DNA of 63,452 nucleotides, counting the filler, from Rozella allomycis CSF55 (lineage: Eukaryota): NCBI GenBank assembly GCA_000442015.1. It is 11 parts of 11 records of this genome, joined end to end, with 100 filler letters (N's around TTAATTAATTAA, not from the genome) between each part and the next. Parts side by side here need not be neighbours in the genome. Positions count along the whole stretch, not along the records: positions 19,162 to 34,782 come from KE560476.1; 10 more parts are not named here. The stretch is one strand, 5' to 3'. The translations under genes and the position numbers were made by a program. A model generated the notes under the pieces. That model did no database searches, was not told the DNA's origin, and was given only the letters and a program-made list of their open reading frames with translations. The stretch's first letter is position 1, and every line of letters starts with the position of its first letter. Positions 6,351-34,782 of the stretch are shown here, in pieces.

Positions 6351-7745
6351 TTAGCCTCGTTGCCAGAGCAGTGATAAAATCGCAAGACCCAAAGAAAAGT
6401 CGTCAACATCAGAACCTGAATCATTTGATGACTTTGGCGCGGTGAAAACAATTTTAAGATTTGGCTTATGTTCTTTGAGTGATTCCTTCAATTTCTTATA
6501 AGATTTATTTTGATCACCTTCGATTTCAAGTAGGTCTAGTTTTGATTCGATTATACTTTGAGAAAATATACGAAGAGACTTGTCTAAATAGATATTTCGA
6601 GTCAGTCTCAAAGTCTTCAAATTAGATTCGGTCAGTGCGTTAAAAAAGCGATTGTTATATTTAATATAGTTTTCTTTTATATTTAATGACTGCAAACTAG
6701 ACACCTTTTCAATCAAAACAATAACATCTTTCACATCTAGTCCCGAGTTTGATATATCAAGATGTTCTAAACGATCAGGAAAACCATATGTAATAAGACT
6801 TCCATGAAGCTTAATATTCTTTGAACATGACAAATTAATACTCTTGAGTTTCGAGAGTCTAACCATTTCCATGAGGAGACCCCAAGACAAAGGATTATCG
6901 CCATAGCGATCAATGCCGCTTAGATTTAAATGATTCAAATTAAACATGGCGACATTAGTAAAAATATCAAACAAGTTACTAAGTGTTATATTGTTATCTG
7001 ATAGATCTAGAGACTCCACCTTGGAATTGTTTAAAAATTTTGTAAACTCTCGAGACTTAAAATTTGGAATATTGTTATTAGACAAATCCAAATGAATTAT
7101 TTCTGATTGAGATTTGGAAATTGATTTAATTAGCTCCACTTCACAAGATACTGTGGATTTTGTGATAGAGATAAGCTTTAATGATTTCTTTTTGCTCACA
7201 AATGGCGGTATTAACAGGCACACTTCTTTGGAGGGGATTCTGGCAATTTTTAATGATATCAAATTGACATTATCTTCGCTTAACACCTTAAGAGCACGTT
7301 TAAAGAGATCTTCGCTGTTAAATTTTTCAAAATCTAATATCACTTCGATTTTAGGATGCTCTTTGCTCGTAGACAAAAAGCGGAGCAACAGATTATAATC
7401 TTCAAAAGAATGTATAAGATTGAACCATAAAAATCCCATATGTTCTGTTTGCGAGAGTATATTTTCGTTAACTTTTAACAGAACGGTACTGCCCTCGACT
7501 TTTAATACTCGGCTTATATCTTTCTCGTTTGGATGCATTTTACGTAAATATTCATCAAAATCTTTAATCAACTTTCGATGTATACGTGAATGGACTCTTC
7601 CAAATCGGTACACATCTTGAAACGGGAGCCGTTCAGCAACCTTCAAAAGAATTTCGTTGGGAACATTTAGTATAGGAACTTCATTTGCTAATATTACACT
7701 CAGAATGACGTTTGTTATAAGCCAAAAATAAATAAACATTTCCAA
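6351..7745 (-). CDS. Predicted secreted F-box/LRR protein
   Basis: Hydrophobic N-terminus, F-box-like ILNVPNEILLKVAERL, repeated LDLSxNxI LRRs; intact 464-aa ORF. Confidence 0.75.
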   Translation of the reverse strand: MEMFIYFWLITNVILSVILANEVPILNVPNEILLKVAERLPFQDVYRFGRVHSRIHRKLIKDFDEYLRKMHPNEKDISRVLKVEGSTVLLKVNENILSQTEHMGFLWFNLIHSFEDYNLLLRFLSTSKEHPKIEVILDFEKFNSEDLFKRALKVLSEDNVNLISLKIARIPSKEVCLLIPPFVSKKKSLKLISITKSTVSCEVELIKSISKSQSEIIHLDLSNNNIPNFKSREFTKFLNNSKVESLDLSDNNITLSNLFDIFTNVAMFNLNHLNLSGIDRYGDNPLSWGLLMEMVRLSKLKSINLSCSKNIKLHGSLITYGFPDRLEHLDISNSGLDVKDVIVLIEKVSSLQSLNIKENYIKYNNRFFNALTESNLKTLRLTRNIYLDKSLRIFSQSIIESKLDLLEIEGDQNKSYKKLKESLKEHKPNLKIVFTAPKSSNDSGSDVDDFSLGLAILSLLWQRG

Positions 7746-8033
7746 CGAAGTATTACCAGATTAGGAAATTCCCAATAATATTTTCTGATCTGACAAGATC
7801 TGCAAGGGCAACATTTACGAATTGTGTTCAATAAATGTCATTTCAAANAAAATCAACTTTCTTTTTGGAATATACAATTTCTATAATTTTATTGAAGTAT
7901 TTATGCCAGTCTTCTCAGAATTATTGACGCATTCCTTTTTGCTCATGTAAAATTGATCATTAATCTGAGCCTGTGCCCTGTGATATACCACATTAGTTTC
8001 GATATTTTGCACATTGGACACTGCATGCGCGAT

Positions 8034-10244
8034 NCTTTACATCCAAATACTTTAAATTAGGCATTCTCTTCATAATAACAATAACTGTATTGATCATCAA
8101 GTCAGAATTTGAGACATCTATGGATTCTAAATGCTCCAACGTCAAGTGATCGTAAATGAATAAACACTTAAAAAGTTTAGGATTCGATCCAGATAAACCT
8201 ATGCGCTCAAGTTTAGATTTTTGGACTAATAGAAAAAGGTCCCCCCAAACATCATACCACTTTATACNAAAATTATGAAACTCAATAAGAATGTGTTTCT
8301 TCTAGTTCTTTGCTTTTTATTTTTAATTTTATTTAGAGAAATGTAAAGACCAGTTTGAGATTTGGCTTCTGTTCCTTTAGCTTTTCTTGAAATGTTTCAT
8401 AAAAACTTGACTTGTCTTCTATGTTTATAGCTATTTCCAAGAAATCAAGCTTTGAAGAAATAATACTGTCATAGAAAATATCCAAACTATTATCCAAATA
8501 ACGCGTTCTCGGTATTTTCAGGGTTCTTAAATTGGAATTGCGAAGTGTTTCATAGAATTGATCATCATAATCAAGGAAATTTCCTTTTACATCCATGTAC
8601 TTCAAATTAGGCATTCTCTTCATTATAATAATAACTGTATTGATCATCAAGTCAGAATCTGAGACATCTATGGCTTTTAAATTCTCAAATGTCAGGTGAT
8701 CGTAAATGAATAATGAATAGAAAACCTTGGGGCTTGATCCAGATAAACTTATGCGCTCAAGTTTAGATCTTAGGACTAATTCAAAAAACTGCCACCATAG
8801 ATCGCTATTTTGTCTACAAAAATTATCGTTGATATTTAAATATTTCAAATTATGTCTTGCTGGCCCTGTCAAGATTAGATCTACTGAAATACCGGGAATA
8901 CAGTTCTTTGAAAGATTCAGCGATTCCACTTTTGAATTCTTTAGATATTTTACAAAACGTGAATTGAGATTGCTTATATAATTGTCTGACAAATCCACAT
9001 GTGTGATTGTGGACATTGATTTCGATATGGATTCAAGAATTTTTAATTCACATGTACACCTAGTTTTTGTTATTGAAATGTGTCTCAAGGTTTTCTTTAG
9101 CTCGACAAATTTAGAAACTAAATCACAAATTTCTTGAGTGGGTATCCCGGTGACTCTTAGGGATACCAAATGAANCATAGATCGCTATTTTGTCTACAAA
9201 AATTATCGTTGATATTTAAATATTTCAAATTATGTCTTGCTGGCCCTGTCAAGATTAGATCTACTGAAATACCGGGAATACAGTTCTTTGAAAGATTCAG
9301 CGATTCCACTTTTGAATTCTTTAGATATTTTACAAAACGTGAATTGAGATTGCTTATATTATTGTCTGACAAATCCACATGTGTGATTGTGGACTGCGAT
9401 TTCGATATGGACTCAAGTATCNAAGATTCAAGTATTTCAAATTATGTCTTGCTGGTGTAAAGATTGGATGATATGAAAAACCGACAACACAATTGTTTGA
9501 TAGATTCAGCGATTCCACTTTTGAATCTTTTACATATTTTGCAAAAATTGACATGAGCATCCCTATATTATTGTCTGACAAATCCACATGTGTGATTGCG
9601 GACTGCGATTTCGATATGGATTCAAGTATCCTTAATTCACATGAACACCTAGATTTCGTTATTGAAATGTGTCTCAAGGTTTTCTTTTGCTCGACAAATT
9701 TAGAAACTAAAACACAAATTTCGTGAGTGATCCCGGTGACTCTTAGGGATGCCAAATTAACATTATCCTGACTCAAGAGTTTTAAAGCATGCCTGAAAAG
9801 ATCTTCGCTATCAAGATCGTCATAATCTAATAATACTTCGACTTTGCAGTACATTGAACCCATCGATTGATATTTAAGAAACAATCGAAAGTCTTCAAAC
9901 GAGTAAATAACATCTAAAGGAAGAAACCCCATGCCCAATGGGTGTATCAATGCTTTCTCGTTTGCCTTTAATATGACACTACTCCCTTCAACTCTAAGTA
10001 CTTTTCGTAAATCTACTTCCTTTGGATAAATTTCTTTTAAGTATCGCTCAAAATTTGTATTCAACGGTGCATGTATAAGAGAGTGGGTTCTCACAAACCT
10101 GTAAGCGTCTTGGGGAGTAAGGTGTTCAGCAATTTTTAAAAGTATTTCATTTGGTAAATTCAATAAGCTCGTTTCGTTTGCTATTTGAATCGCTATAACG
10201 CCTAAAAGCAGATTTTGGAACATAAACAAGAATATTAAAAGCAT
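8034..10244 (-). CDS. Secreted F-box/LRR paralog(s), fragmented at single-N joins
   Basis: ORFs 9354-10244 (signal peptide + LLNLPNEILLKIAEHL + LRR), 9157-9378 and 8333-9178, plus fragment 8034-8268. Confidence 0.7.
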
Positions 10245-10321
10245 TGCTTGAAAATTGTAGTATCTTTCAACCCTTGTCGTCTTTATGGATAGATTAGGTA
10301 ATTAGAAAAGTTAATACATAN

Positions 10322-10806
10322 ACATTATCCTCACTCAAGAGTTTCAAAGCATGCCTGAAAAGGTCTTCGCTGCCAAGATCGTCATAATCTAATAATACTT
10401 CGACGTTGTAGTACATTGAACCCATCGATTGATATTTAAGAAACAATCGAAAGTCTTCAAACGAGTAAATAACATCTAAAGGAAGAAACCCCATGCCCAA
10501 TGGGTGTATCAATGCTTTCTCGTTTGCCTTTAATATGACACTACTCCCTTCAACTCTAAGTACTTTTCGTAAATCTACTTCCTTTGGATAAATTTCTTTT
10601 AAGTATCGCTCAAAATTTGTATTCAACGGTGCATGTATAAGAGAGTGAGATCTCCCAAATCTGTAGATGTCTTGCGGAGAAAGTTGTTCAGCAATCTTTA
10701 AAAGAATTTCATTTGGTAAGTTTAATAAGTGTGTATCTTTTGTTATTTTGACAGTTAGAACGCCTAAAAGCAAGCTGTGGAATAGAAACGAGAATATTAA
10801 GAACAT
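10322..10806 (-). CDS. Secreted F-box/LRR paralog, N-terminal part
   Basis: Signal-peptide-like start + F-box; nearly identical to 9761-10244 downstream of the F-box. Confidence 0.7.
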
Positions 10807-11220
10807 TGCTTAAAATTTTACTACCCCGGTCCTTTTGTGGATAGATTCGGTAATTAGCTAAATAATTTTAGTTAAAGATTTTTTTAAACATATCAACTTG
10901 TAGATAAAGGGCAAATTAGATAGAAAAATTAATATAAAAATAGATCTATATGCATAGGAAAATAGACAGGCAAAATTGATGAATTGAACGTAATAACAGA
11001 GTTGAAAATTATGAACTCTAACTTCTTTAATAACTTTTACTTGATTTTATAGGTTAATTGTTACTAAAATCACATTTGATGTTCCATTTTCATCAAACAA
11101 TTTTCCTGTGGCCTGTACACGTTTTTTGAAATACTATGTTTCATTTTAAAAGCCTCGATCAGCCAATTTTTTTGATTTGATTGATTTTTAACATGGAAAA
11201 TTGCAAAAGTGAATTTCGGA

Positions 11221-16933: not shown

Positions 16934-17541
16934 NNNNNNNNNNNNNNNNNNNNNNNNNNNNNNNNNNNNNNNNNNNNTTAATTAATTAANNNNNNNNNNN
17001 NNNNNNNNNNNNNNNNNNNNNNNNNNNNNNNNNCAAAGCATTCATCTCATTTCCTTTGCATGCAATTGATCTTGTGCAGGCATTAAGTTTAAAACATTTT
17101 GGCTTTTGAATGGCCCGTTAGGTGATGAACCTTCGGCGTTGCAAAACCCAAGGTACTAAAAGTTGTTACGTACAATAAAAGTGTCCACGGTAAGCAGGCG
17201 AGACATACAGCTTTAAGGTCCTCTCACAGGCCGCCAGATACATGTATCCGGCGAAAATAATTGCGGCAATAGTGGCCATTAACATGGCAAGTCTCCGGGA
17301 GCAAAAAAATACGTTGTTGAATGTAATAAGAACTTAGGATTAATGTTCGTTTGGTTTTAAAGGACAGATACTTGTTTGGATGCGTTAGCCCGCAAATTAT
17401 TATTTTTCGGCGTGGGATCTCGTTTATGGGCATACTGGCAGATGTAGCCTTTCAGTGAAGAAATTAAATTTGGCGGCTGTTACAAAAGCCCCAGCACACC
17501 TTTTATAGTGACGTGTCGCTTTATTTCGAACACGCCACAGN

Positions 17542-19061
17542 GAGATCAAAAAGTAATTTCTGAAGTACACAAACTGTATCCAAAGAACACCTTCTGATCT
17601 CAATAACATTGGGTACAAAGGTTTGAGAGAATCTACAAGGACAATAACTTAACCACTGAACCGACGAAGCATTTGCTAAGACTCTTCGCTCACAATAACG
17701 AGTCCGTTGCACAGTGGCTGACAAGGCACAATGAATTGAATCCTCTTTGCAGCTGGGATATCTTGAAAAACGATCTACTAAAAGAATTCCTCTCTCCCTA
17801 TTGGAAATCCGAATAATACTCCAAGATATTCAACAGTTCCGGAATTCATCGGAAGATTTTAAGACCTCTTGACGGAGAACAATATCGCCTTTACTGTTCC
17901 GGATTCGCAACANTGTCATTACTAAACTTCTACACTAAACGGTGACTTTGAACTTGGTGCCTGAAATACAATTTATTCAAAATATATTTTTCCCGGCCTG
18001 TTTATGAGTATGACCCCCCCCAAGTCAACGCAGCGTGGGGTAATAAAAATATTGATTCCCTCGTTCTATTTTTTTTAATAAGTTAACGAATTTATTTATA
18101 ATAATCTTTCAAATCAGNTAATAAAGAGTCTGTCGCACAATGGCTAACCAGACATAATGAATTGAATCCTCTCTGCAACTGGGATGTCTTAAAAAACGAT
18201 CTGTTGAAGGAGTTTCTCTCTCCCTATTGGACATCCGAAAAATACTCCAAGATATTCAAAATACAGTACTAGCATGGAGCAACAGTTCCGGAATTCATCG
18301 GAAGATTTCACGACCTCTTGACGGAGAACAATATCGCCTTTACTGTTCCGGATCCGCAGCTNGTCAGAAATATACTCCAAGATATTCAAAATTCAATACT
18401 ACCATGGAGAAACAGTACCTGCATTCATAGGAACATTTCAAGACCTTTTGACGGAGAATAATATTGCCTTTACTGTTCCAGACCCGCAACACAATCTCTT
18501 GAAAGAACTCCTTTTCCCAAAGCTTCCAGATTCTGTAAAGGGACTACTCAACAAAAAACCAGTGAGCAAATTTCCAACAATCTTGAGTCTGATGCAGGCC
18601 GTCAAGGAATTCCCCGGAATTCCTTATNCAACAATCTTGAGTCTGATGCAAGCCGTCAAGAAATTCCCCGGAATTCCTAATGATATGTCGGTTGCATATG
18701 CTAGCAGATCTCCGTCAAAGAGAAGAGTGNCAACAAACCGGTGAGCGAATTTCCTACCATCTTGAGTTTAATGCAGGCCGTCAAGGAATTCACTGGAATT
18801 CCTAATGATATGTCGGTTGCATACGCCAGCAGATCTCCTACAAGTAGAAGAGTTGAGACTCAGAAGGAAAATTCCGGTAGCCCTGCTAAAAAGAAAGTCA
18901 CAACCACTTATTATTGTGAATTCCATAAGAACAATCAAAGGATTACGCACAAAACTGAAGACTTTAGAGCTCGCAAGAGCGGAACAGGAGATAACTCAGG
19001 AAAATCGGAGGAGAAGAAAAAGGCCAGAAAGGATTTTGTCAAGAAGCTATGTGACAAATGT
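17542..19061 (+). mobile_element. Degenerate LTR-retrotransposon gag fragments (several overlapping copies)
   Basis: Repeated 100-200 bp pieces; YYCEFHKNNQRITHKTED and KKLCDKC knuckle-like motifs. Confidence 0.55.
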
Positions 19062-19225
19062 NNNNNNNNNNNNNNNNNNNNNNNNNNNNNNNNNNNNNNN
19101 NNNNNTTAATTAATTAANNNNNNNNNNNNNNNNNNNNNNNNNNNNNNNNNNNNNNNNNNNNCAAAAAAAATAAAAAAAATTGACATGTTAAACTGAATAA
19201 TAAATGTTATAATTACTATAATTAT

Positions 19226-20233
19226 TTATTTAGCAGCCTTCGTTTTATATTTTTTCTTCAATGATCTCCACTTCTATTGTCATTAAGTAATAGTACTTAC
19301 TTCAACGTTGCATCTATTATTTGACGACTTTGAAAAATAGTCAATGTAGTATTCCACTGCTTCATACGCGTCCTTAGAACCTTTTCCAAACCCTGATCCC
19401 ATTTTAATGTATCTTAGACAATTACATTCGTCATTTTTACTTTTCTATATTCTCATAATCATTTTGATATGCAAAATTAGGACCTACTAAAATGGCAGCT
19501 CCTTTTTTTTCGAACACCGTAACAACACAATGCGGCACGAAGGGCTTAAAAGTCATGACGGTTCCAGGTAACTGGACATATACCTGGGGTTTGTCTTTAT
19601 ATTTGAAATAACTTTACAATTTAAAAGGTTTTTTTACCTTAATAATTCTGCTTCGTCGCATGTATATGAGGAAAATTTCGTATTAAATTTAGTTATGCGC
19701 TTCCAAAATAACCAAATTTTGGCAACCTTGACTTTGGTTGGAAGAAACCATGCAAAATTATGCCCCATATCGATGTGTCGATAGGTGACATAATCTCCAA
19801 AATGCGCAAAAGCTGTAAATGTTGGAACACAAACATTTGTACAATCTTTTATCATCCTACATTTTTAAACTCTACTTAATGTTACTTATCATTGAAATGC
19901 TGTAATTCCTTTTCAATAAGTAGAACTGTCTTTTCTTGACCACTTTTTAAAATGTCGTCAATTCTACGCTGTAGCTCGGATTTAGTTATTCCTTGGTTAT
20001 CATAAATATAACTTGTTATTACCAAAGTTTTGATACTGGTTTCCCGCCCACAAAACAACATCTCTTTTATCTGCTTCCCACGTTTTAATATTAAATACTC
20101 CTCTGTCGCATATACTCACATTCGAGTGATAATGCGCAGCCAGAGTTTTTAATATTTGTGGATTGATTTTGGGTTTAAAACCTATCTTCTTCGTCAACAG
20201 AGCCTCTCTGTTCGCTTTTCTCATACAAGCCAC
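19226..20233 (-). CDS. JmjC-domain 2OG/Fe(II) dioxygenase (5 introns; start uncertain)
   Basis: Removing GT-AG introns 19992-20022, 19857-19885, 19612-19637, 19413-19440 and 19274-19300 gives one frame: ...YVTYRHIDMGHNFAWF...KIWLFW...VQLPGTVMTFKPFVPHCVVTV...AILVGPNF...KAAK*; HxD...H triad present. Confidence 0.8.
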
Positions 20234-20746
20234 CTATGTCCCTCAAGCCTAATACATATCCCTTTTTACGTTTTTTCACCTGAAACATATATAATTGTTT
20301 GTAGCGTATGCTGATGTGTCGCTACCACTCATAAATGACCAACAGTCACCACTGGAACCTCGTTGCCTTAAAACATTGATTAGGTAACATTAATGTCTGC
20401 ATGGCGAGCTCAAATTTAAATTTTAATGTAATGCAGGACATATGTCAATCTCATTTATATATAAATGATGTATCTGTCATGAATGGTGTTTCCTTTTAAG
20501 TACGTTTTGTACCAAATATGCCTGCCTAAAACCCATTTGTGAATGAGAGTTACTTATGTTATAACTATTAACTCTTTTAGGGGCTAAAGATATCATAGAT
20601 AAAGTTTTTTTAAAAAACGATTGTGTCGTCTTCAATGGTGTCCCTTTAGTGCACATAGCATTACATTGCTACAATTTATCAAATATCAGAATACAAAATT
20701 ACTTGTTATGATCTAATATTTGTTCTCTCTACGTCTCGCGTATCCC

Positions 20747-23700
20747 ATGTTGCTAACGACGACGACCATCAATCAAATGTGCGCTGACAACAATTCCTAT
20801 GTATGCGATCCGTCTTACGTATCTCACATGAACGAATATGTTTCTGCAGTTGGTGAACTTGAGTTAACATCGGTGGCGATCAAGGAGAGAATACTGAATG
20901 AATCAAAGTCATTAGGTTATGCTCTGTCTGTTGTTCGGACAGACAAGAATAAAATAATTTTGGCCTGCAGTAGGTCAAAATATCCGTCTTGCTTAGCACG
21001 GGTTAGAATATCAACGTATAAAACAGAAATTGGAAAGATTGGTTTGCATGTGTTTGAGCATAATCATCCTCCTAGCGACAAGGTTACAACACTTCCTGAT
21101 AATGTTGATGATGCTATTCGAAGCTTCACACAAGCGCAAATGAATTCGTTTCAAATACATACTGCCATACAGGTAATGTTTCCAGACAATCATATCCCTA
21201 TACATACAATAGTGACAAAAGTGAAAACAATGCGTAAAGAGCTTTTTGGTAGCACGGGAATTGAATATGATAAACTAATAAAGCAAATTGAAACTGAAGA
21301 GAATACATACACACGAATACAGGTAGAAAGAGATTCATTAGGGACAGTGCTAAATTTTATGTGGAGTGACACGCGCGCGCTAAATAACTTTGAATCAACT
21401 AATTGCGATTTGCTACTTGTCGATACTACATACAAGTGCGTAAAATTTGACCAATCACTTGCATTATTTGTATCTATGGACTGTCACGGTGTATACTATA
21501 TTGTTTCAGCTGCTCTGATTTCTTTAGAAGACGCGCGTACATTCACATGGTTAATTAATAATCTCAAAAGTCTTTGTCCAAAGTTGGGTACTAGTCACAC
21601 CATAATCTTCACTGACAATGACGCTGCTATGACGTTAGCATTTGAGGGCATGGCATTTCTTTCGCATTACCTTGATCTATTTTATTTTTTGCAAGCCCTA
21701 GACCGTAATCTCCGATGTCGCATGCATCAGTACGAAAACTTCCGTCGCACTATACGTCGTCATATTCTTTGCATATCTTCNCTTCCTACTTGTCGATACT
21801 ACATACAAGTGATCTATGGACTGTCACGGTGTATACTATATTGTGTCAGCTGCGCTGAGTTCTTTAGAAGACGCGCGTACATTCACATGGTTAATTAATA
21901 ACCCTAAAAGTGTTTGTCCAAAGTTGGGCACTAGTCACACCATAATCGTCACTGACCATGACGCTGCTATGACATTAGCATTTGAGGGAATGGCATTGCT
22001 TTCACATTACCTTGATCTACTTCATTTTGTGCAAGCCCTAGGCCGTAATCTTCGATGTCGCATGTATCAATACGAAAACTTCCGTCGCACTATACGTCGT
22101 CATATTCTTTGCATATCTTCAACTGAATTGGAGTCGGAAATACCAAATCTTGTTAATTAGTTTCACATTACTAAGGCCGGACGTGAATACATACAGAATT
22201 ATGTCGTTCCTATTCTCCCAAAGGTTTGCCGAAAAGATAGAAGTCATGTATTTGATTTAGGAGTGTCGGGTACTAACTCATGTGAGGCATTTAATCGTGT
22301 CATTAAGAGTTACGGGGCGAACTTTGCGTCGCATGCCTTATCATTGATGCAAATAACTGATTTCATATTTGACACTTACACTGAGAAGTATAAATCTATA
22401 ATTGAACGTAAGGCCCAATTAGTTAATGTTTCAAATATGTCCCAATCTGAAAAGGATTTAAAACAGCGCCTCGGAGCCTATGCAGAGTGTAAATTACTGA
22501 AACAAATGCGAAAAGCTATGTTCTTAGACGTTGTGTCTCACAGCGACAATTGCACATATAAAATATCCAGTAATGACATTCAAGTGGCCACTGTAACATT
22601 AAATGATAGCGATGATGACATTAACCGTGTCTATATTACAAGCGCAAAGAAATTATTTGCTCACACATTGTGGCCGTAAAACAAAAATTGGGTCAATCTG
22701 TCTCCTTTAACGACTGTATTCCTCGTTGGCATATGCCCGTCATTAACGAACCAATGTGTCTTCTGGGTCCTCCAATGTAGTGTCAATGACAGTGCGTCCT
22801 CAAACGTCCCTGCGCGAATGCCGCCTAAAATAACACGCTGTCCATAAGTTAATGTATAATGAAGCTTTTAACAGCGTTGAAAAACTACAGATCGCAATTG
22901 ACGGTTGCCAACACACATACCAATGTCTGTTTCTAAATGTTTCCTCCTTTGATCCTCCAGCTAGGCAAAAAAACGTTCTTAACGAAAAAAAAGTGCAAAT
23001 TAAAATTCAAAAGTATTCGGTTTATTAATATCTTAAATGTACTTCTTTTCCAATAGCCCATCGGTCCCCTTCCGTTTGAGTGAATATGCGCATTCGTCTA
23101 AATCGAGTAAATAAATGTCTCCNTTAGTTTCACATGACTAAGGCCGGATGTGAATACTTACAGAATTATGTCGTTCCTATTCTTCCAAAGGTTTGCCGAA
23201 AAGGGAGTGTCGGGTACTAACTCATGTGAGGCATTTAATCGTGTTATTAAGAGTGACGGAGCGAACTTTGCGTCTGATGCCTTGTCATTGATGCAAATAA
23301 CTGATTTCATATTTGAAACTTACACTGAGAAGTATAAATGTATAATTGAACGTAAGGCGCAATAGTTAATGTATCAAATATGTCCCAATCTGAAACGGAT
23401 TTAAAACAGCGCACCGGAGCCTAGGCAGAGTGTAAATTACTGAAACAAATGCGAAAAGCTATGTTCTTAGACGTTGTGTCTAACAGCGACAATTGCACGT
23501 ATAACATATCCAGTAATGACATTCAAGTGGCCACTGTAACATTAAATGATAGCGATGATGACATTAACCGTGTCTATATTACAAGCGCAAAGAAATTATT
23601 TGCTCACACATTGTGGCCGTAAAACAAAAATTGGGTCAATCTGTCTCCTTTAACGACTGTATTCCTCGTTGGCATATGCCCGTCATTAACGAAACACATG

Positions 23701-23960
23701 TGTCTTCAGGGTCCTCCAATGTAGTGTCAATGACAGTGCGTCCGCAAACGTCCCTGCGCGAGTGCCGCCTAAAATTACAAGCTGTCCATAAGTTAATGTA
23801 TAATGAAGCTTTTAATAGCGTTGAAAAACTACAGATCGCTATTGACGGTTGCCAACACACATATCAAAGTTTGTTTCCTCAAGAGTCCACAAATGTTTCC
23901 TCCTTTGATCCTCCAGCTAGGCAAAAAAGACGTTCTAAACGTAAAAAACGTGCAAAATAA
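20747..23960 (+). pseudogene. MULE (Mutator) DDE transposase with SWIM finger; two overlapping versions, each with stops/frameshifts
   Basis: N-terminal ACSR...C...EHNH, LLVDTTYK, IFTDNDAAM, GTNSCEAFNRVIK, PCLYY...ICSHIVAV (SWIM), basic C-terminal tail. Confidence 0.9.
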
Positions 23961-23989
23961 AATTCAAAAGTTTTCAGTTTATTAATATC

Positions 23990-25536
23990 TTAAATATACT
24001 TCTTTTCCATAAGCCCATCGGTCCCCTTTCGTTTGAGTGAATATGCGCATTCGTCTAAATCGAGTAAATAAATGTCTCCATTTGACAAATTTAAGCCCAC
24101 ACCCGTACCGTGCGGAGATTCATCGTACCAAATGTTCGTGACGTCCTTATTGATTTTTTGTTTCAAGTATTGGTAAATTGCTTCTGTAATATTGTAACCA
24201 TCACAATTTAGTTTAACCTTCCATTTTGCTAATACTTTTTTAGGTTCGCACGACAACGCTGCACAATGCATTGGTACATGGCGATCCATCTCACAAGCAT
24301 GTATAAGGGGCGCTTCATGAAAAGTTATTAAAGTCTTCTTAAAATTGTCCAATGTAAATGACAAATTCGTATCTAAAGGGGGTTTTCCTAGCTCAAATTT
24401 TTTAGATTTCCACATGCGAAAATTTTGATTGTAATTATAGACTCCTCGATCAAAAAGAAAATGAAAGTCGTTGCCTTGCAAAAGCGGCACAAGCAATGGG
24501 AATCGGCCATTAACTGTCCAATGCAGCCTTAAAAACCATCCGCTGTCACACCATGTTCATCATACATTGGATATGCCAATTCGTATAAATTATTCACGAC
24601 CCATCTTAGAACAGCGCAACAACGCTCAATAGACGGAAACACAAACTTTTGAAAAACTAAATGTAAACTAATTTTTGTCCCTTTCGACGCGTCCAACACT
24701 ATCACATTATTGACAATTTCTTCCGCATCGTTTATACCCATGCCCCTTAAGGCTTTTGCAAGATACCATTTAAGACTATCCACGACTGCTTCTTTTCTTA
24801 CTAAGCTTTGAAACTCATTAATGACTGCTTGATATTGACAGTCGATGTCCATAAAGAATTTCACGGGCACATTTTTGCGAACTATTTCGTAGCAAGTCTT
24901 GTTGCAGCTGCCTAAAACACTATAGTAATCAAAAAATGTCTTGATGTCAGTGTAAGCATAGTGACGGGCACCCGAGCTATTAACTTCGCGCGAAACAAAA
25001 ATCTCATTTTCCACTGTTTGTTCGTNACGGAAACACAACCTTTTGAAAAACTAAATGTAAACTAAATTTTGTCCCAGTCGACGCGTCCAACACTATCACA
25101 TCATTGACAATTTCTTCCGCATCGTTTATACCCATGCCCCTTAAGGCTTTTGCAAGATACCATTTAAGACCCTTCACTACTGCTTCTTATCTTACTAAAC
25201 TTGGAAACTCATTAATGACTGCTTGATATTGACAGTCGATGTCCATAAAGAATTTCACGAGCACATCTTTGCGAATAATTTCGTAACAAGTCTTGTTGCA
25301 GCTGCCTAAAACACTAAAAAGGTCACAAAATGTCTTGATGTCAGTGTAAGCATAGTGACGTGCGCCCGGCTATTAACTTCGCGCGAAACAAAAATCTCAT
25401 TTTCCACTGTTTGTTCGTTACTTGATGTTAGACACTTATGCAATTTGCGATGCCATTCAATATCCGCTCTTAACTTTTTTAACTTAAATGCTTCCAGTGG
25501 CGATATAGTAACCAAAGTTCTTTTTGAATTCGACAT
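23990..25536 (-). CDS. PrimPol-like archaeo-eukaryotic primase-polymerase (one frameshift at a T-run near 24530; duplicated segment at N25026)
   Basis: GARHY...FFDYY...CYEIVRKNVPVKFFMDID (motif I), DASKGTKISLHLVF (motif II SxH), FDRGVYNYNQNFRMWKSKK (motif III). Confidence 0.85.
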
Positions 25537-25863
25537 TCTAAAGTTTCACTTGCAACTCCCCGTTTATATACCCGTATGTTTCATTTTTAATTGGTTCAAA
25601 ACCACCATTACCCCTAACTCCTTCTATTCTTAGGACATTCTTCTTTATAATTGGTTCAAAACGTAATTTTCATAAACTATATATACACTATACCGCTGAA
25701 TTTGCATATGACTAAACGAGGTAAACACTTTATCGTATCGTTCAATGAGCAAGCGATGCAGAACATACCTGCCCACCGGATACTACAANTACATTCTTGT
25801 TTATAATTGGTTCAAACCGTCATTTTCATAAACTATATATACACCATACCGCTGAATTTGCAT

Positions 25864-27575
25864 ATGACTAAACGAGTTAAACACTTTATCATATTGTTCA
25901 ATGAGCAAGCGATGCAGAACAATTCGGCCCACCGCATACTACAAGCTTTTGATTCAGCTACAAATGTTCCGCCTACTACAGTCACAGGTATTTTGGACTT
26001 AGAAGCCGCTGCAGATAATTCAGATGCCGCAACAATCACTACNCTACTGTCACAGGTATCTTGGACTTAGAAGCCGCTGCAGATACTTCAGATGCCGCAA
26101 CGATCACTACTTTCGTTCTAACAAAATCGTCGGAGGGTCAACAATTATCCTCCTTTTTGTCGTTTAACAAAACGAAAAGACTAGGTCGTCATTTTCTCTC
26201 ACGTATCATTACACACAACGTACACATTCAAAGTGTTAAAGCACTTAAACGTAATTGGAAACATGACTTAATTGCTTTGATCCAAGGTTGCAACAACAAT
26301 TACGAGGTACTTAGGGGGACTATGCCAGACATTAGTTCCTCAAAAATGATTTCATTAATAGATTTTTATGCAATTGCATGTNACTTTGATCCAAGGTTGC
26401 AACAACAATTACGAGGTGCTTAGGGGGACTATGCCAGACATTGACACGGTAGTTAGTTCCTCAAAAATGATTTCATTAATAGATTTTTATGCAATTGCAT
26501 GTGATCATAAATTTCACGACGAATTATGCCTTTTTGCCTTTATTCAAAACCACGAGTCTTCATTTGACATTCAATTAGAACAACTAGCTTTTCAATTAAA
26601 ACTTTCGTAAACCGAAATATGCACTCTAAAAGCATGTCCGTACGTGTTGCCGAAGCAATTTCTTGGGGCGAGTCTCGTCAAGAGGTGTCNCTGACATTCA
26701 ATTAAAACAACTGGCTTTTCAATTAAAAACCTTCGTAAACCGAAATATGCACTCTAAAAGTATGTCTGTTCGTGTTGCCGAAGCAATTTCTTGGGGCGAG
26801 TCTCGCCAAGTGGTGTCTAGACGCCTGCAATCTCGTATGGACATTTTGCATCACCTCAAACCACAAGAGCGCCCTATCGAAACAGATAATATATATTTGA
26901 TTTTGCGAACGCATAATTTAGATCCGCATATCTTTCGTGCGGCTTTACTCAANAGGTGTCTAGACGCTTGCAATCTCGTATGGAAATTTTGCATCACCTC
27001 AAACCACAAGAGGGCCCTATCGAAACAGATAATATACATTCGATATTGCGAACGCATAATTTAGATCCGCATATCTTTCGTGCGGCTTTACTCAAATTTA
27101 TATTTGCCGATGTATCAAACGAAAACGTCGGCTATGCCTTATTGGTTCTTCCAATACCAACAAAAGCAAAATAGCACAAGGCTTATGCGACATATTGAAG
27201 TCTGCGACTTTAATAAGTGAAAACACCGTTTACAAGTTAAAGCCACTTCTCAATGCAGAGCTTATAATAATTCCTGAATTGCAAAAATTATTTAATTCCA
27301 GAGTATTAAAGGAACAAGACCTGCTTGCATTATTGTCTGAGGCAAACACTTTATCAATTCCTGTTTCCAATGACGGAAAACAAAAAAAACTCAATCTAAA
27401 TACACCCATATTTATTATGAATCAAAATGACAATTTTGAAAAATTCACAGACATTTCATCCTTAAAAAACAGGTTAGAAATAATACATTTCAATGGCCCG
27501 GCATTTTCAAGCAACCTTCAACTTCCAATCACCGGCCATGCACTTGCTTACTTTCTTTTGACACCAAATGAATAG
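25864..27575 (+). CDS. Parvovirus NS1/Rep-like superfamily 3 helicase (duplicated pieces at N joins; -1 shift near 27117)
   Basis: NIYLILRTHNLDP...KRKRRLCLIGSSNTNKSKIAQGL (Walker A), ELIIIPE (Walker B), TPIFIMNQN (motif C), SLKNRLEIIHF (Arg finger). Confidence 0.75.
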
Positions 27576-27714
27576 ATATACTTAATAATAAAGGCTATTA
27601 AATATTTTATTTTCTTTAAACCTTTCTATTTTTAAATTTATATATCAGCCACAGTGGATTAAACTCGAGCCAGTGAGGCGCATTACTTGCCATTCCATTC
27701 CACCAATCATATTT

Positions 27715-27763
27715 CTTCTTACCTATGGGGTGTGGTCACACCCGGGGTGTAATTTCTTTAGCC
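27715..27763 (-). repeat. Right terminal inverted repeat with GC hairpin
   Basis: Reverse complement is GGCTAAAGAAATTACACCCCGGGTGTGACCACACCCCATAGG. Confidence 0.8.
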
Positions 27764-27899
27764 GAAAATCCTAAACCATTCAATCAACCAAACCAAATCA
27801 AAGAACAACTAAAATAAGAAATATAACAACAAATTAATGAACAATTCAAACAAAACAAGAACGAATCAATCAAATGATGATGAAAGAGAATAATTCTTT

Positions 27900-28330
27900 A
27901 CACCAGAATATAAAAGGGAAGCAATCAAGAAATAAGCGATCAGTTTCCAACTCATTTCTCTGATTCATCTTCATTTTATCAATTAATCCATCTATCCATC
28001 TATCATACCACATACGATTTTACTTTTGCCTTTAGCCTCCCAGTATTTTCGAATTAGTGTGAAATCGTGGAAGTCAATTTCTTCCTCCCATTGGTTGTAT
28101 GATGGATCATGATTCTTCCAGTTTACCAAATATTCTGATGTATTGTCAGCATTTAGTCTGTGTTCTAATATCTTTTCGACTTGAACAGCTTTGCTGTTTG
28201 GATCCTCGTTAACTGGGGTGCCATGGAATAATATCAATGTATGAGGAGGGCGAGTATTTATGGTGCCATCTGGACCTAAAAGTTCACAGGCGCCACCTTT
28301 GTTTCGTCTGATTATTTTGAAAGGCCCAGT
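27900..28330 (-). mobile_element. Ty3/gypsy chromovirus 3' end (integrase GPF motif, chromodomain, probable LTR)
   Basis: GPFKIIRRNKGG; VEKILEHR...EYLVNWK...YNQWE chromodomain; 27915-28011 resembles 29170-29266. Confidence 0.8.
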
Positions 28331-28552
28331 TTTTAAAGTATGGACTATTCATTAAATTTGAAAATAGCAATGTAAAGCCGTTGTGGCTGAGTTTATTTAA
28401 AAGTTTTTCTTCAGCCTAGGTACNCTAGTAAGAGAATTTGTCTGGTTTTCCGATGGGTTTTTAATTGATACTGGTATTGTTTTCTTTCGTTTTTGCAAGC
28501 ATTCTGTTGAAGTAATCTTTAGTGGCAAAGAAGCTAACGAATCTAAAATCTA

Positions 28553-29007
28553 GGGCAGATCAATTCCCCGCACCATGTTGGTCATGTCCCTACACCACCT
28601 AAATAAAACTTTGAAAAAATGTCAATTGCCCGCACCATTTGTCATTTTCCCGCACCACCTTAAAAAAACATTTCCCCGCACCACATGAAGGACTTGTCAA
28701 AGTTATGCGTTAATTCGACATAGTACAACTCGCCCATTACTTATCGAAGCAACATAGCTTGCATGTAACAGTCGGGACAGAAAAAACTTAAAGAACTTAA
28801 GAAAAAGGGCGACTTTCGCATGAGAAAGAAGACAGAAAACAGGTCACTGAATTTGTACGCAGGAATATATTATAAATATGAATAAATGTATTATTATGTA
28901 TATGCGCAACACCTATATATATCTATTTCTGAATTGAGATTTTGGTGTGAGTTTTTGGTGGTGCGGGGAAATGACATTTTTTGGTGGTGCGGGGAATGAT
29001 GATCTCC
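28553..29007. mobile_element. Non-autonomous MULE-type MITE
   Basis: GG...CC ends; imperfect TIRs built of CCCCGCACCA units; 9-bp TSD TAAAATCTA (28544-28552) / TAAAATCCA (29008-29016). Confidence 0.75.
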
Positions 29008-29266
29008 TAAAATCCAGGTAAACCTTAATGAAGTGTTAGCACACATCAATGAAGTCAGAAGAATAATCTCAAAGAAAGAAGAAGAAGAAAAAAGTGAATC
29101 AATTATAAATGAAAACAATGTATTAGAATCTTCCAGACGAATGGTAGCTATGACAACGTCAGCATATATAAAGGAAGCAATCAAAAAAAAACAAGCGGTT
29201 TCCAACTCACTTTTCTGAGTCATCTTTACTTTATCAATTTATCCATTCATTCATCTATCTTGTTAC

Positions 29267-32227
29267 AAACGATTATATCCTGTTCCTATCGCATTGACAA
29301 ACTAACAGGACCACCAATTATCACACATGGGCGCTGGAGTTCCGCTAAGTCCTTGAAGAATTGGACCTTGATCGCTTTTGCACATCGCCTTCGTATCCAT
29401 TATCTAAATCCAATGCTACCTGACCAAGCCTATAATACTATCCCGGCCACTCCTCCCGGGTGTTGCGATATCTTTCATTTAGAAAATCATGCTCCTCACA
29501 CATGTCAACATCTTCCACTTTGGTATGTGCCAGGAAAATCTCAGTACCTGTTTTGCAAGCATTGTCGCACTGCCGTCACAGTTTCCAGAACTGTTATCAC
29601 CCACCTGCACCATGGGAAACAAGGCGTGACCGGGGTTATCAACAACACCGAAGACGGAATGCATTTCCTAAACCACCTCGTAGACAACAAGATGACCCTC
29701 CTACAAGAAGCGACGAGAATCTCCAACAAGAATCACGACTTGTTCACAATGATGAAGATCCATTTAACCCAAACATATTCTCTAATTGTCTTCATTTAAC
29801 AACAAACAATTTACAAAAACCATGCCATCTCATCAGGTAATACTTGGCTTGTTGACACAGGGCGCACTCATCACATGACTAACAATATCAATCCCTTTCA
29901 GTACTATCACGAAAATGCTAATCCACCTGTTAGATTTGCAAAGATTGGTCTCATTGAAGTTCCAGATTCAGCGTTTGTCACACTCCAGGTGCTATTGCGC
30001 GATGGCACAGTCAAGCCTTTTTCTTATCTAATGTTCTCTATGTTCCAGACGTGAATCATATTTTATTTTCCTGCGAGATCCGAATGTTTAAAAGAATCGT
30101 GTGTTGTTTAGTGATGGGTTTTGTACTGCTGAAGACAAGGTCACTGGAGAAATTTTGTTGGAAGGTATATATGATGGTCGATTTTATCTTATTTTACTCT
30201 AAGAGCCGCGATCTTATCATCTGTAAGTTTTAATCAAATAAATACAATGAATTTGTGGCATGAGAGACTTGGTCATGTGAACGAGGAAACAATCAAACAG
30301 ATGTGGAAAAACCANAGAGGTTCATTTTTCCGTGTTCTTAATTCGTCAGTGACCATGACATATGCTCCTGGTTGAAGATTAAAAATTCTGTTATATTCAA
30401 GGCATTCACCCCCTTCTAGTGTCGCTTTTGTATTAGACAACTTATTAATTTCAGGATACACAATCGATGTCGTTTAGTTAAGATCGATGTCGTTTAGTTA
30501 AGACGAGCCTCCAACTCTATTGGTGATAAAGATATTAACTCTTTTTAATTATTCTAATTCCTAAAAAAGTTAGGAGCCCTTGCGAACATCAACGAAAATG
30601 GTGTAGATTTTGTTGTGTCAGAAACTTTTAGATTACAAATGTATTGTGATTGAGCAACATAGTTATCCCATTCACGAATTTGATCTTGAAGCCAATATGT
30701 CTTTTAGCTATGCCATTAGCACGAGGATTGGATGGAGTTATTAACCTGAATTAACAAGTTGATTCACAAATTATGTACCATTATCAGATCGTCTCCAATT
30801 GTCTTCATTTAACAGCAAACAATTTACAATTACAACAAGCAACATTGCCAGGAGAATACTATCACATGACTAACAATATCAATCCCTTTCAGGACCATCA
30901 CGAAAATGATAATCCACCTGTTAGATTTGCAAAGACTGGTCTCATTGAAGTTCCAGATTCATCGTTTGTCACATTCCAGGTGCTATTTCGCGATGGCACA
31001 GTCAAACCTTTTCTCTTATCTAATCTTCTCTATGTTCCAGACGTGAATCATAATCTATTTTCCTGCGAGATCCGAATGTTCAAAAGAATCGTGTATTGTT
31101 TAGTGATGGGTTTTGTAGAAATTTTGTTGGAAGGCATGAATGATAGTCGATTTTATCTTATTTTATTCTCAGAGCCGCAATCTTATCATCTGTAAGTTTT
31201 AATAAAATAAATACAATGAATTTGTGGCATGAAAGACTTGGTCATATGAACGAGGAAACAATCAAACAGATGTGGAAAAACCAAACCTTTGATGGAATGA
31301 AGCCTTTTAATTAATCAATTGAAAATAGTTCTGGATTCGCTTATATTGAATAATTAGCACAGAAACGTGATGCCGCCGAAGCCATCAAGACATTCATAAG
31401 GAGAATCCACAATAAGCAAAGTTGTAGAATCAAAACAATTAGATCTAATAGAGGTGGAGAATTTGTTAACGGACCTTTAAAAGACTTTTGTGGCCAAATT
31501 ATGAAATTCTAAAACAGGGTATGAATACATATAAGTAATTAGGGGTATTCACCAGGTATGTCATGTATATTCCTTTGACAAAAATGCAAGCAGAAACGAA
31601 ACTGCAGGAGAAGCTTTTGTTAATCAATGGATTAGTATTTTTAGTTTTGCTCATAAAATTTTGTCAGATCAAGGAAGTCAATTCATGGGTAAGNCTTAAT
31701 CATAAGCTTGATTTCTGTGAATCTTGTAGACAGAGCAAATTAACTAGGTCATTCTTTAAAAAAAGCTGTCGCCAAGAGGTCGACGTGGGACAATTTTGGC
31801 ACACAGGTTTTATGGGTCCCATTAATACAACAAATCTAGGACGCAAGATAAATATAATAACTTTCATTGAAAATAGTTCTGGATTCGCTTATATTGAATA
31901 ATTAGCACAGAAACGTGATGCCGCCGAAGCCATCAAGACATTCATAAGGAGAATCCACAATAAGCAAAGTTGTAGAATCAAAACTATTAGATCTAATAGA
32001 GGTGAAGAATTTGTTAACGGACCTTTAAAAGACTTTTGTGGCCAAATTATGAAATNGAGCATATGAAATTATTGGACTATGACTCAGTGAAATGCAAGCT
32101 AGTAGGTTATAACTTAAATTCATAAGCATGGCGCTTTAATGTAATTGGAACTAATAAAATAATTATCTCAACACAGACAGTGTTTCACAAAATTAAGAAA
32201 GAATATATCACACTACAAGAAAATCCT
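29267..32227 (+). mobile_element. Degenerate Ty1/copia retrotransposon (duplicated pieces, interleaved with gypsy fragments)
   Basis: CKHC...H...C knuckle, WLVDTG.THHMT protease, LWHERLGH, CESCRQSKLTR, IRSNRGGEF integrase, KCKLVGY. Confidence 0.85.
30316..30770 (-). mobile_element. Ty3/gypsy integrase C-terminal fragment
   Basis: WDNYVAQSQYICN...STPFSLMFARAP and PGAYVMVTDELRTRKNEP. Confidence 0.65.
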
Positions 32228-34782
32228 GGCTAAATCTATACACACCCGGGGTGTCTGAACACCCCCGGTTCAGAGTNTGAAAATCGCATATAAATGGAAG
32301 CCTGTTTAGCAATAATGCATTCTGGGATTCAACTCCATCAATGTGGGGCGAAGCAATTATGGTGGCAAACTACATACAGAACAGAACAGGAAGACAACAA
32401 CATTCATACAAGANTATCAACAACTTCTACATCAACCGCAGATCATCATCAAACATTAGGAAGAGTGAAGCGTATTAATAAATTTCTTTATCAAATTCTT
32501 TATTTATATTTATCAATGAAAGTCAAAAAAAATTGGGAAATTAATTTACCGATATTTGCCCTTTGCAGATAACTCCAGTATTGTTGAATCCCCTATGTTC
32601 ACTCCTCATTATCATATGTTTGGCCAAAAAGCAAATTTACCTACAGACATTGTATATTTAGATCNGATTTGACATGGATTTATCATGGCTGGCTTGGGCT
32701 TAACTTAGAAAACATTTTGGTCTTCGTCAAGAATAATAATAATAATTGTAATGTTAATCTGCATAATTAAATGTTACTATAATAATTTATTTAGCAGCCT
32801 TCGTTTTATATTTTTTCTTTAATGATCGCCACTTCTATTTTCATTAAGTAATAGTACTTACTTCAAAGAAATTGCATCTATTATTTGACGACTTTGAAAA
32901 ATAGTCAATGTAGTATTCCACTGCTTCATACGCGTCCTTAGAACCTTTTCCAAAGCCTTATCCCAATTTAATGTATCTTAGACAATTACATTCGTCATTT
33001 TCTCTTTTCTATAAGGGCTGAAATGTCATGAAGGTTCCAGGTAATTGGACATATACCTGAGGTTTTTCTTTATATTTGAAATAACTTTACAATTTAAAAG
33101 GGTTTTTGACCTTAATAATTCTGCTTCGTCGGATGTATAGGAGGAAAATTTCGTATTAAATTTAGTTATGCGCTTCCAAATAACCAAATTGTGGCAGCCT
33201 TGACTTTGGTTGGAAGAAACCATCCGAAATTATGCCCCATATCGATGTGTCGATAGGTGACATAATCTCCAAAATGCGCAAAAGTTTTCATTGAAATGCT
33301 GTAATTCCTTTTCAATAAGTAAAACTGTCTTTTCTTGACCACTTTTTAAAATGTTGTCGATTCTACGCTGTAGCTCGGATTTAGTTTTTCCTTGGTTATC
33401 ATAAATAGAACTTGTTATTACCAAAGATTTGATACTGGTTTCCCGCCCACAAAACAACATCTCTTTTATCTGCTTCCCACGTTTTAATATTAAATACTCC
33501 TCTGTCGCATATACTCACATTCGAGTGATAATGCGCAGCCAGAGTTTTTAATATTTGTGGATTGATTTTGGGTTTAAAACCTATCTTCTTCGTCAACAGA
33601 GCCTCTCTGCTCGCTTTTCTCATACAAGCAACCTATGTCCCTCAAGCCTAATACATATCCCTTTTTACGTTTTTTCACCTGAAACATATATAATTGATTG
33701 TAACTAATGCTGATGTCATAAATGACCAACAGTCACCACTGGAACCTCGTTGCCTTAAAACATTGATTAGGTAACATTAATGTCTGCATGGCGAGCTCAA
33801 ATTTAAATTTTAATGTAATGTGGGGCATATTTGAATCTCATGTATATATATATGTATCTGTCATGATTGGTGTTTCCTTTTAAGTACGTTTTGTACCAAA
33901 TATGCGTGCCTAAAACCCATTTGTACATGAAAGTTACTTATGCTATAACTATTAACTCTTTGAGGTGCTAAAGATATCATAGATACAGTTTTTTTAAAAA
34001 ACGATTGTGTCCTCTTCAATGGTGTCTCTTTAGTGCACATAGCATTACATTGCTAAGATTGAGCAAATATCGGAATACAAAATTACTTGTTACGATCTAA
34101 TATTTACCCTCTCTACGTCTCGCGTATCCCATGTTGCTAACGACGACGACCATCAATCAAATGTGCGCTGACAACAATTCCTATGTATGCGATCCGTCTT
34201 ACGTATCTCACATGAACGAATATGTTTCTGCCGTTGGTGAACTTGAGTTAACATCGGTGGCGATCAAGGAAAGAATACTGAATGAATCAAAATCATTAGG
34301 TTATGCTCTGTCCGTTGTTCGGACAGACAAGAATATAATAATTTTGGGCTGCAGTAGATCAAAATATCCGTCTTGCTTAGCACGGGTTAGAATATCAACG
34401 TATAAAGCAGAGATTGGAAAGATTGCTTTACATGTTTTTGATCATAATCATCCTCCTAGCGACAAGGTTACAACATTTCCTGATAATGTTGATGATGCTA
34501 TTCGAAGCTTTATAAAAGCGCAAATGAAATTCGTTTCAAATACATACTGCCATACAGGTAATGTTTCCAGTCAATCATATCCCTATAAATACAATAGTGA
34601 CAAAATGGAAACCTTCCGTAAAGAGCTACGGGAATCGAATATGATACACTAATAAAGCAACTTGAAACTGACGAGAATACATACACACGAATACAGGTAG
34701 AAAGAGACTCATTAGGGACAGTGCTAAATTTTATGTGGAGTGACACGCGCGCGCTAAATAACTTTGAATCAACTAATTGCGA
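32228..34782 (+). mobile_element. Second, partial copy of the JmjC-MULE element, including the left TIR
   Basis: GAAAATCCT|GGCTAAATCTATACACACCCGGGGTGTCTGAACACCCCC; 32770-34782 collinear with 19200-21412; JmjC copy has deletions; transposase ATG at 34131; retro fragments lie between N32277 and N32666. Confidence 0.8.

Follow-up and report, generated by a model that had tools for sequence, protein, structure and literature searches.

A Mutator element with a primase-helicase gene pair, inserted in a copia retrotransposon and mis-ordered in the Rozella allomycis assembly

Why should the right end of a transposon precede its left end, with the same nine letters beside each? The question is raised by a window of 63,452 nucleotides, filler included, from Rozella allomycis CSF55 (GCA_000442015.1), in which positions 19162-34782 form one contig (KE560476.1, here C128) of 16 pieces with 15 single-N joins. 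The contig holds a Mutator-like element (MULE) whose terminal inverted repeats (TIRs) adjoin two copies of GAAAATCCT in permuted order. We find that GAAAATCCT is a genuine target-site duplication (TSD) of a Mutator element that entered an old copia retrotransposon, and that the scaffold shows a single nested insertion with its pieces out of order and circularly permuted. What is new is a Mutator carrying a conserved primase-helicase pair; the arrangement in the window is itself an artefact.

In the window the nine letters stand twice on the plus strand and once on the minus strand (52520), and the chance of nine letters agreeing at a fixed position is ~8e-6. Both junctions lie within N-free pieces (26954-28423 and 32057-32276), and four single Ns separate them (28424, 30315, 31694 and 32056). 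A genome search with each junction found uninterrupted copia sequence on contigs C525 and C622, where GAAAATCCT stands once each (the C525 empty site was met as two identical pieces and counted once). In both, the matches to the left and right flanks share exactly nine bases, and the sequence, continuous across the junction, then enters reverse transcriptase (RT). Additionally, in one of four runs placed on C128, a high-depth contig (run contigs below) links 32218 to 27764, with the nine letters matching both sides. The proposal of a first-pass annotation that the identical repeat marks one copia insertion is thus borne out. Its further statement that the flanks rejoin one copia-like frame holds in part: both peptides quoted are present, but the copy is decayed, with in-frame stops upstream, and the frame closes 14 codons past the TSD.

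The 9-mer could have been part of the element had it flanked every copy. Among loci showing both element ends, which are the only ones that this test covered, all four carry a 9-bp repeat of their own, each different from the others (matching at 9/9, 9/9, 8/9 and 8/9 positions; Table 1). An element-internal origin of the 9-mer is ruled out because other loci carry other 9-mers, and the TSD proves the TIRs to be functional ends.

The element belongs to the Mutator/MULE superfamily, as the first-pass annotation had supposed from its ends: a DDE transposase, TIRs and a locus-specific 9-bp TSD are all present. The transposase matches Pfam PF10551 at E 3.6e-12 (47 bits against a cut-off of 27.6), its D, D and E motifs read DTTYK, TDND and CEAFN, and the SWIM finger scores above cut-off in sister copies. 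No intact transposase frame was found in the copies read.

Once duplicates are removed the element is ~6.3 kb long. Its TIRs match imperfectly, at 28 of 41 aligned columns, and the same ends recur at other loci. From the left TIR the gene order is JmjC-like (minus strand), MULE transposase with SWIM (plus), primase (minus) and helicase (plus). A sister copy on C616, 4672 bp and N-free from TIR to TIR with a TSD matching at 8/9, still has remnants of the four genes, their order and strands unchanged; it is this copy, and not the window TSD alone, that shows the cargo to have moved as a unit. An N-free piece of C656 has transposase, primase and an open helicase frame of 478 codons, a run contig of 1999 bp covers the transposase end and the primase, and pairs or triples of the four genes stand together on C656, C597, C853, C712 and C835. 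The C656 subfamily has no JmjC match. Genome matches to the helicase (16) and the primase (19) all fall on contigs of the family or on short contigs with only these genes. The primase-helicase spacer is a candidate two-way promoter or origin. Short two-ended derivatives, MITE-like (miniature inverted-repeat transposable elements) and non-autonomous, are abundant; our TIR pattern search was too strict for counting copies. On C392 (L035 2667-3303) an element left end lies within the helicase remnant of another copy, an instance of self-nesting.

The reversed order of the ends has its origin in the scaffold. Beyond 28423, run contigs from all four runs continue into a ~140-bp repeat instead of 28425, and in one run the tail of the same repeat sits before 30316. 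On C433 the gypsy flanks are contiguous in the order 28430-28503, 28046-28328, 30321-30633, so 28425 lies upstream of the nest and 28423 downstream; in sister copies the gypsy is unbroken from 28338 to 30316. The piece 32278-32413 comes before 32072 (joint 32413-32072; two of four runs and sister copies), run contigs also give the joint 31311-31695, and the sister left ends on C850 and C392 lead from the left TIR straight into the sequence of 32667. Duplicates of 90-95% identity next to single Ns are passed over by the run contigs, so we read them as alternative variants, not tandem copies. Joints, loose ends and pieces here are those listed for the runs (15 of 26 joints).

This evidence for a false join, together with the flank order, gives the likely true order: 28425 onwards (long terminal repeat (LTR), gag, integrase), TSD, element, TSD, linker, LTR remnant, gypsy. 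Very probably, a single ~6.3-kb Mutator element entered a decayed copia in its integrase-RT linker and so duplicated GAAAATCCT, after the copia itself had landed at a chromodomain gypsy's end. In this reading, N28424 is where scaffolding tied the downstream flank to the upstream one; pieces of two element variants, ~93% identical, were also interleaved, so that the right end comes before the left. Links from empty-site gypsy copies, or from an empty allele, may have closed the loop, which the scaffolder would then have opened inside the element. Against this reading of the locus, two of the runs (X1 and X4) may derive from the same sample as the assembly, 28339-28423 is a multi-copy repeat, and the two copia LTR remnants are alike to only 80%.

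The first-pass annotation had instead explained the permuted ends by a real tandem duplication or by two haplotypes scaffolded end to end. The 5' part of the element is indeed present twice at 90-95% identity, as are many internal stretches, and two variants occur at similar depth in the run contigs; read depth did not separate alleles from paralogues. However, the permutation point is the scaffold join N28424, across which run contigs and sister copies contradict the adjacency: 28423 continues elsewhere, and the sister gypsy runs through from 28338 to 30316. Past that join, upstream and downstream pieces are interleaved, and the duplicated stretches near single Ns are skipped by the run contigs. 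We therefore consider both explanations highly unlikely. The reversed order is a warning only, that single-N-joined contigs of this assembly can be circularly permuted.

Table 1. Features of the nested insertion, with positions in the window, and target-site duplications at loci showing both element ends
Feature	Position	Strand	Remarks
Right TSD copy, GAAAATCCT	27764..27772	+	copia integrase-RT linker sequence; directly after right TIR (...TTTAGCC)
Left TSD copy, GAAAATCCT	32219..32227	+	directly before left TIR (GGCTAAA...)
TSD at C128			GAAAATCCT twice
TSD at C217			GATCGGGAC twice; an N separates the ends
TSD at C616			TATAAAACT/TATAATACT
TSD at C1046			GGGATTCTC/GGGTTTCTC
Right TIR	27724..27763	-	~40 bp, imperfect, with GG...CC ends; this end recurs beside other flanks on C217, C626, C672, C861
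Left TIR and first 49 element bases	32228..32276	+	~52 further bases absent before 32666
Element 5' part, variant beta	32666..34782	+	JmjC-like gene with internal deletion, transposase start; 90-95% identity to 19162-21408
JmjC/cupin-like gene (candidate), variant alpha	19226..20233	-	HxD...H motif in translations
MULE DDE transposase, C-terminal SWIM finger	20717..23960	+	overlapping pieces of two variants, with stops
PrimPol-type primase-polymerase gene	23990..25536	-	start 25536; frameshifted in this assembly
Primase-helicase spacer	25537..25707	.	170 bases, genes head to head; same layout on C656, C835
SF3 helicase gene, parvovirus NS1/papillomavirus E1 fold	25708..27575	+	window copy: frameshift, altered Walker A
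Single-N scaffold join	28424..28424	.	false adjacency behind permuted order; loose ends of run contigs
Copia linker 3' of insertion	27773..27909	+	78-84% identity to C525, C622; then RT-RNase H deletion
Copia 3' LTR remnant, distal	27904..28010	+	ends CA, then CATAC (28011-28015); 80% to 5' LTR; aligns with LTRs of C525, C747
Ty3/gypsy pol, chromodomain end	28016..28338	-	PF00385 E 2.5e-10; goes on at 30316-30633; continuous on C433, C703
Copia 5' LTR	28505..29280	+	TG start after CATTC (28500-28504); MITE interrupts at 28553-29007
Copia gag/protease/integrase pieces	29290..32413	+	colinear with C525; downstream-flank pieces (30316-31693) interleaved; 32278-32413 out of place

The primase belongs within the AEP (archaeo-eukaryotic primase) superfamily. 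A sister copy aligns with human PrimPol at E 1e-4, including the DxD, SxH and hD motifs, and PF23162 scores above cut-off in one of two copies scanned. Its look-alikes are mostly nucleocytovirus and herpesvirus AEPs, and a homologue search returned three matches, all from Rozella allomycis.

The helicase is of superfamily 3 (SF3). Open sister genes (C656 and P0015) have Walker A, motif C and the arginine finger, and full-length P0015 scores above the Pfam cut-offs of both PF01057 (NS1) and PF00519 (E1). Its predicted structure, modelled from a nine-row alignment (pLDDT, a model-confidence score, 71.7; the single-sequence prediction, at 35.6, was useless), matches adeno-associated virus (AAV) Rep, B19 NS1 and E1 at Z 16-17, and AAV2 Rep40 at Z 17.2 with a root-mean-square deviation of 5.6 over 249 aligned positions. 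The N-terminus is modelled as a beta-alpha-beta-beta-alpha-beta-alpha pattern at pLDDT 40-70, and a weak alignment of it has no conserved His or Tyr (HUH, catalytic tyrosine). A word-seeded homologue search with the helicase gave no match; an alignment-based search gave four, three of them from Rozella allomycis, and a search of 1.84 billion representatives gave nine. P0006 is the closest relative outside Rozella. One of the nine, with 25% identity over 187 residues, lies on a 5.4-kb circular contig beside an open reading frame (ORF) that we called capsid-like by eye and for which Pfam is blank. No relative was found in the viral contigs scanned.

Some observations adjoin these. The circular contig, of 5,434 nt and from a metagenome (L052 1-5557), has a divergent Rep-like SF3 protein and an Arg-rich capsid-like ORF; its large ORF carries a lipase class 3 domain (PF01764 above cut-off), and the contig is an odd candidate for a small DNA virus. 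Another zoosporic fungus, Paraphysoderma sedebokerense, has a weak helicase relative (P0012, E 4e-4) on a 419-kb contig. On C656, a ~290-bp tandem repeat with Cys-rich frames and no clear ORF lies 3' of the helicase (L023 8030-8620, L024 130-680).

Conservation of the genes bears on whether this cargo matters to the element. For the helicase, the ratio of nonsynonymous to synonymous change (pN/pS) is 0.14 between C656 and C607 (347 codons). Compared with the window copy, its C-terminal part gives 0.26-0.27; constraint is weaker in its N-terminal parts (0.45-0.65). Between subfamilies, where synonymous sites are largely saturated, the primase has values of 0.10-0.44 and the transposase of 0.19-0.47; all these ratios are biased somewhat downward by local protein-guided alignment. 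Purifying selection has thus acted on primase and helicase as on the transposase, and the cargo is functional, or once was. The minus-strand gene next to the left TIR is a candidate JmjC-like oxygenase. It has homologues on C729, C616, C15 and C642, the HxD...H triad is conserved across copies, and its exon has a pN/pS of 0.23 against C729; exon pieces gave no Pfam JmjC match and were blank in a PDB search. The copy on C15 (L058 59-830) is remoter, 53% in the compared exon, and no TIR is visible in that 1.5-kb contig.

When cut-and-paste transposons such as Mutator gain copies, the usual explanation is replication and repair by the host. From the gene content of an element with TIR ends, 9-bp staggered integration, four genes inside and selection on primase and helicase, we infer a different route. 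In it the transposase would bind the TIRs and carry out integration at a 9-bp stagger. Much like papillomavirus E1, the SF3 helicase would be loaded onto DNA of the element to unwind it, and it seems to have no nicking residues; PrimPol would prime and fill in. Together, helicase and PrimPol would copy a circular or copy-out intermediate before reinsertion, so that the element would multiply and not merely move. By analogy with the bacterial element TnGBS, we hold replication of such an intermediate by the pair to be a little short of an even chance. The JmjC-like gene, found in one subfamily, may counter silencing. A fuller proposal, which we put forward tentatively, is a eukaryotic Mutator that replicates itself: its helicase would have come from a small circular DNA virus as a captured Rep (its nickase lost, as in E1 and large T), a PrimPol would have been captured too, and the two would serve to amplify an excised or copied-out circle ahead of reinsertion. 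If true, this would be a self-synthesizing transposon built of Mutator transposase, AEP and SF3 helicase, a eukaryotic counterpart of TnGBS. Where an element preserves a primase and a ring helicase by selection over the same span as its transposase, a replicative route could be tested with three small proteins, and such an element would tie Mutators to small DNA viruses, much as other integrases are tied to large ones by Polintons and Teratorn.

Several findings speak against such a replicative role. In both subfamilies the Walker B motif is I(V/I)PE, with Pro replacing the first acidic residue, and the primase has no C-terminal UL52 zinc finger, PF03121 matching only the host PrimPol gene on C861. 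The suggestion that the helicase N-terminus may be an inactive HUH or origin-binding domain comes from a low-pLDDT model. In the window, helicase (frameshift, altered Walker A), primase and transposase are all broken, and no copy in the assembly has all genes intact, each one examined being partial or broken. Between two young variants the transposase N-terminus has a pN/pS of 0.66, that is, decay. Primase and helicase are not needed in cis, because non-autonomous derivatives that lack them are abundant. No activity, expression or element circle was seen, and no TIR-TIR circle joint is among the 15 of 26 run-contig joints listed.

The same conservation data would also suit a primase and helicase that aid transposition without replicating the element, through repair or refilling of the donor site, resolution of strand transfer or stripping of the transposase. 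There is a precedent in IEE, an AEP with a helicase that acts on circle-forming insertion sequence (IS) families, IS256 being listed among them (bioRxiv 2023.06.07.543989), and the lack of a zinc finger and the atypical Walker B would fit. However, the helicase here is a replicative-type SF3 ring with an oligomerisation domain, not the SF2 type of IEE, and its kin are replication initiators of small circular DNA genomes; we regard an IEE-like role as unlikely, if worth keeping in mind. The pair might otherwise be what is left of a replicon, viral or plasmid, that had joined with a MULE and employed it as integrase, in the manner of Teratorn, with selection stemming from extrachromosomal life and not from transposition. 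The viral look-alikes of the primase, the parvovirus NS1 and Rep look-alikes of the helicase and the compact head-to-head arrangement all point that way. Yet the four genes fill the element and none is capsid-like, the scanned viral contigs hold no relative, and the MITE-like derivatives point to ordinary TIR mobilisation, which leaves this origin rather improbable.

Passive Pack-MULE cargo without a role for the element has in its favour that MULEs often capture genes, according to PMC6446971 and PMC6431247, and that every copy seen in the assembly is decaying. Against it, whole genes keep the same layout in subfamilies ~50% apart in protein. No host donor was found, since the host PrimPol matches the element primase only at E 0.03 or worse, a remote kinship, and the helicase has no match outside the family. 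The pN/pS values, as low as those of the transposase, largely refute this reading, and we give it hardly any weight.

Every feature tested places the element among the MULEs; it is neither a Pack-MULE nor a Polinton or casposon. The scanned element ORFs give MULE, SWIM, AEP and SF3 matches only, with no family B polymerase. Casposons also combine an integrase with DNA-synthesis genes between TIRs, and they encode a family B polymerase. Likewise, Polintons and Teratorn (PMC6431247) join an integrase or transposase to DNA-synthesis genes between TIRs. Polintons and casposons use family B polymerases, and Teratorn a whole herpesvirus genome, whereas the element here has a Mutator transposase. With the MULEs described in a survey (PMC6446971) it has in common a PF10551 DDE transposase with SWIM, TIRs, a 9-bp TSD, extra ORFs on the opposite strand and non-autonomous derivatives. 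The extra ORFs in the survey's table rows covered are mudrB/MutB, PMD, SET and FAR1, in contrast to PrimPol, SF3 helicase and a JmjC-like gene here, and the words helicase and primase are absent from its main text.

Mutator-superfamily elements, maize Mu1 included, form circles, and the circle of TnGBS is replicated by its own replicase, according to PMC3942029. TnGBS and the Mycoplasma integrative and conjugative elements resemble the element here in their Mutator-like transposase, 8-9 bp duplications and element-encoded circle replication, the last predicted here from gene content. They are bacterial, large and conjugative, with a plasmid-type replicase, whereas the element here is eukaryotic, ~6 kb long and has a primase with an SF3 helicase. 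IEE, in the preprint cited above, is alike in that an AEP primase-polymerase and a helicase work with a DDE transposase; it differs in that both activities, the helicase being of the SF2 type, sit in a single fused protein whose gene lies outside the IS. The element helicase has an oligomerisation domain and SF3 AAA+ fold in common with NS1/AAV Rep, E1 and the Rep of CRESS viruses, but has Pro in Walker B and sits in a TIR transposon.

We found no Mutator with primase and SF3 helicase in the literature, although Repbase, most subscription journals and supplements could hold one. In the text available, PMC5751038 only lists MuLE among the transposons of Rozella, PMC6431247 speculates that a primase-coupled replicon and an integrase could yield new elements, and the part of the Replitron preprint available mentions neither Mutator nor primase. 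'Helicase-primase' was filtered as a transposon-related label in Rhizophagus (PMC8647823), which hints that cargo of a related kind may be present elsewhere.

The surroundings of the element are themselves layered, the locus being one nest of Mutator inside copia inside a chromodomain gypsy, whose end the copia had itself entered. The copia class follows from the order integrase before RT in C525 and C622, judged by eye from what we take to be the motifs of the two domains, and from TG...CA LTRs; the bordering CATTC and CATAC, read as its 5-bp TSD, agree at 4/5 positions. A second GG...CC MITE, at 28553-29007, lies within the copia 5' LTR; its site is empty in the LTRs of C525, C861 and C747, and it has relatives on C699, C62, C253 and C656. 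Its own 9-bp TSD, TAAAATCTA/TAAAATCCA, gave the idea of an AAAATC target preference, which is ruled out, the motif being absent from the other three TSDs of the family. At 28339-28423 stands a ~140-bp dispersed repeat within the gypsy, with varying 5' ends (C463, C217, C861, C479, C806) and no TIRs noticed. A second copia fragment (30792-31693 and 32415-32663), 85-99% identical to the first, is broken by a high-depth gypsy-integrase-like repeat; run contigs link 31693 with 32415/32421 in this fragment.

Elsewhere in the window, a small contig of its own occupies positions 17034-19061; its gag-like frames lie in duplicated pieces with a Cys/His motif at the end, and it is probably another retrotransposon fragment. 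At 6351-10809 lies a tandem cluster of secreted-looking genes with F-box and leucine-rich repeats, candidate effectors of the parasite against its fungal host.

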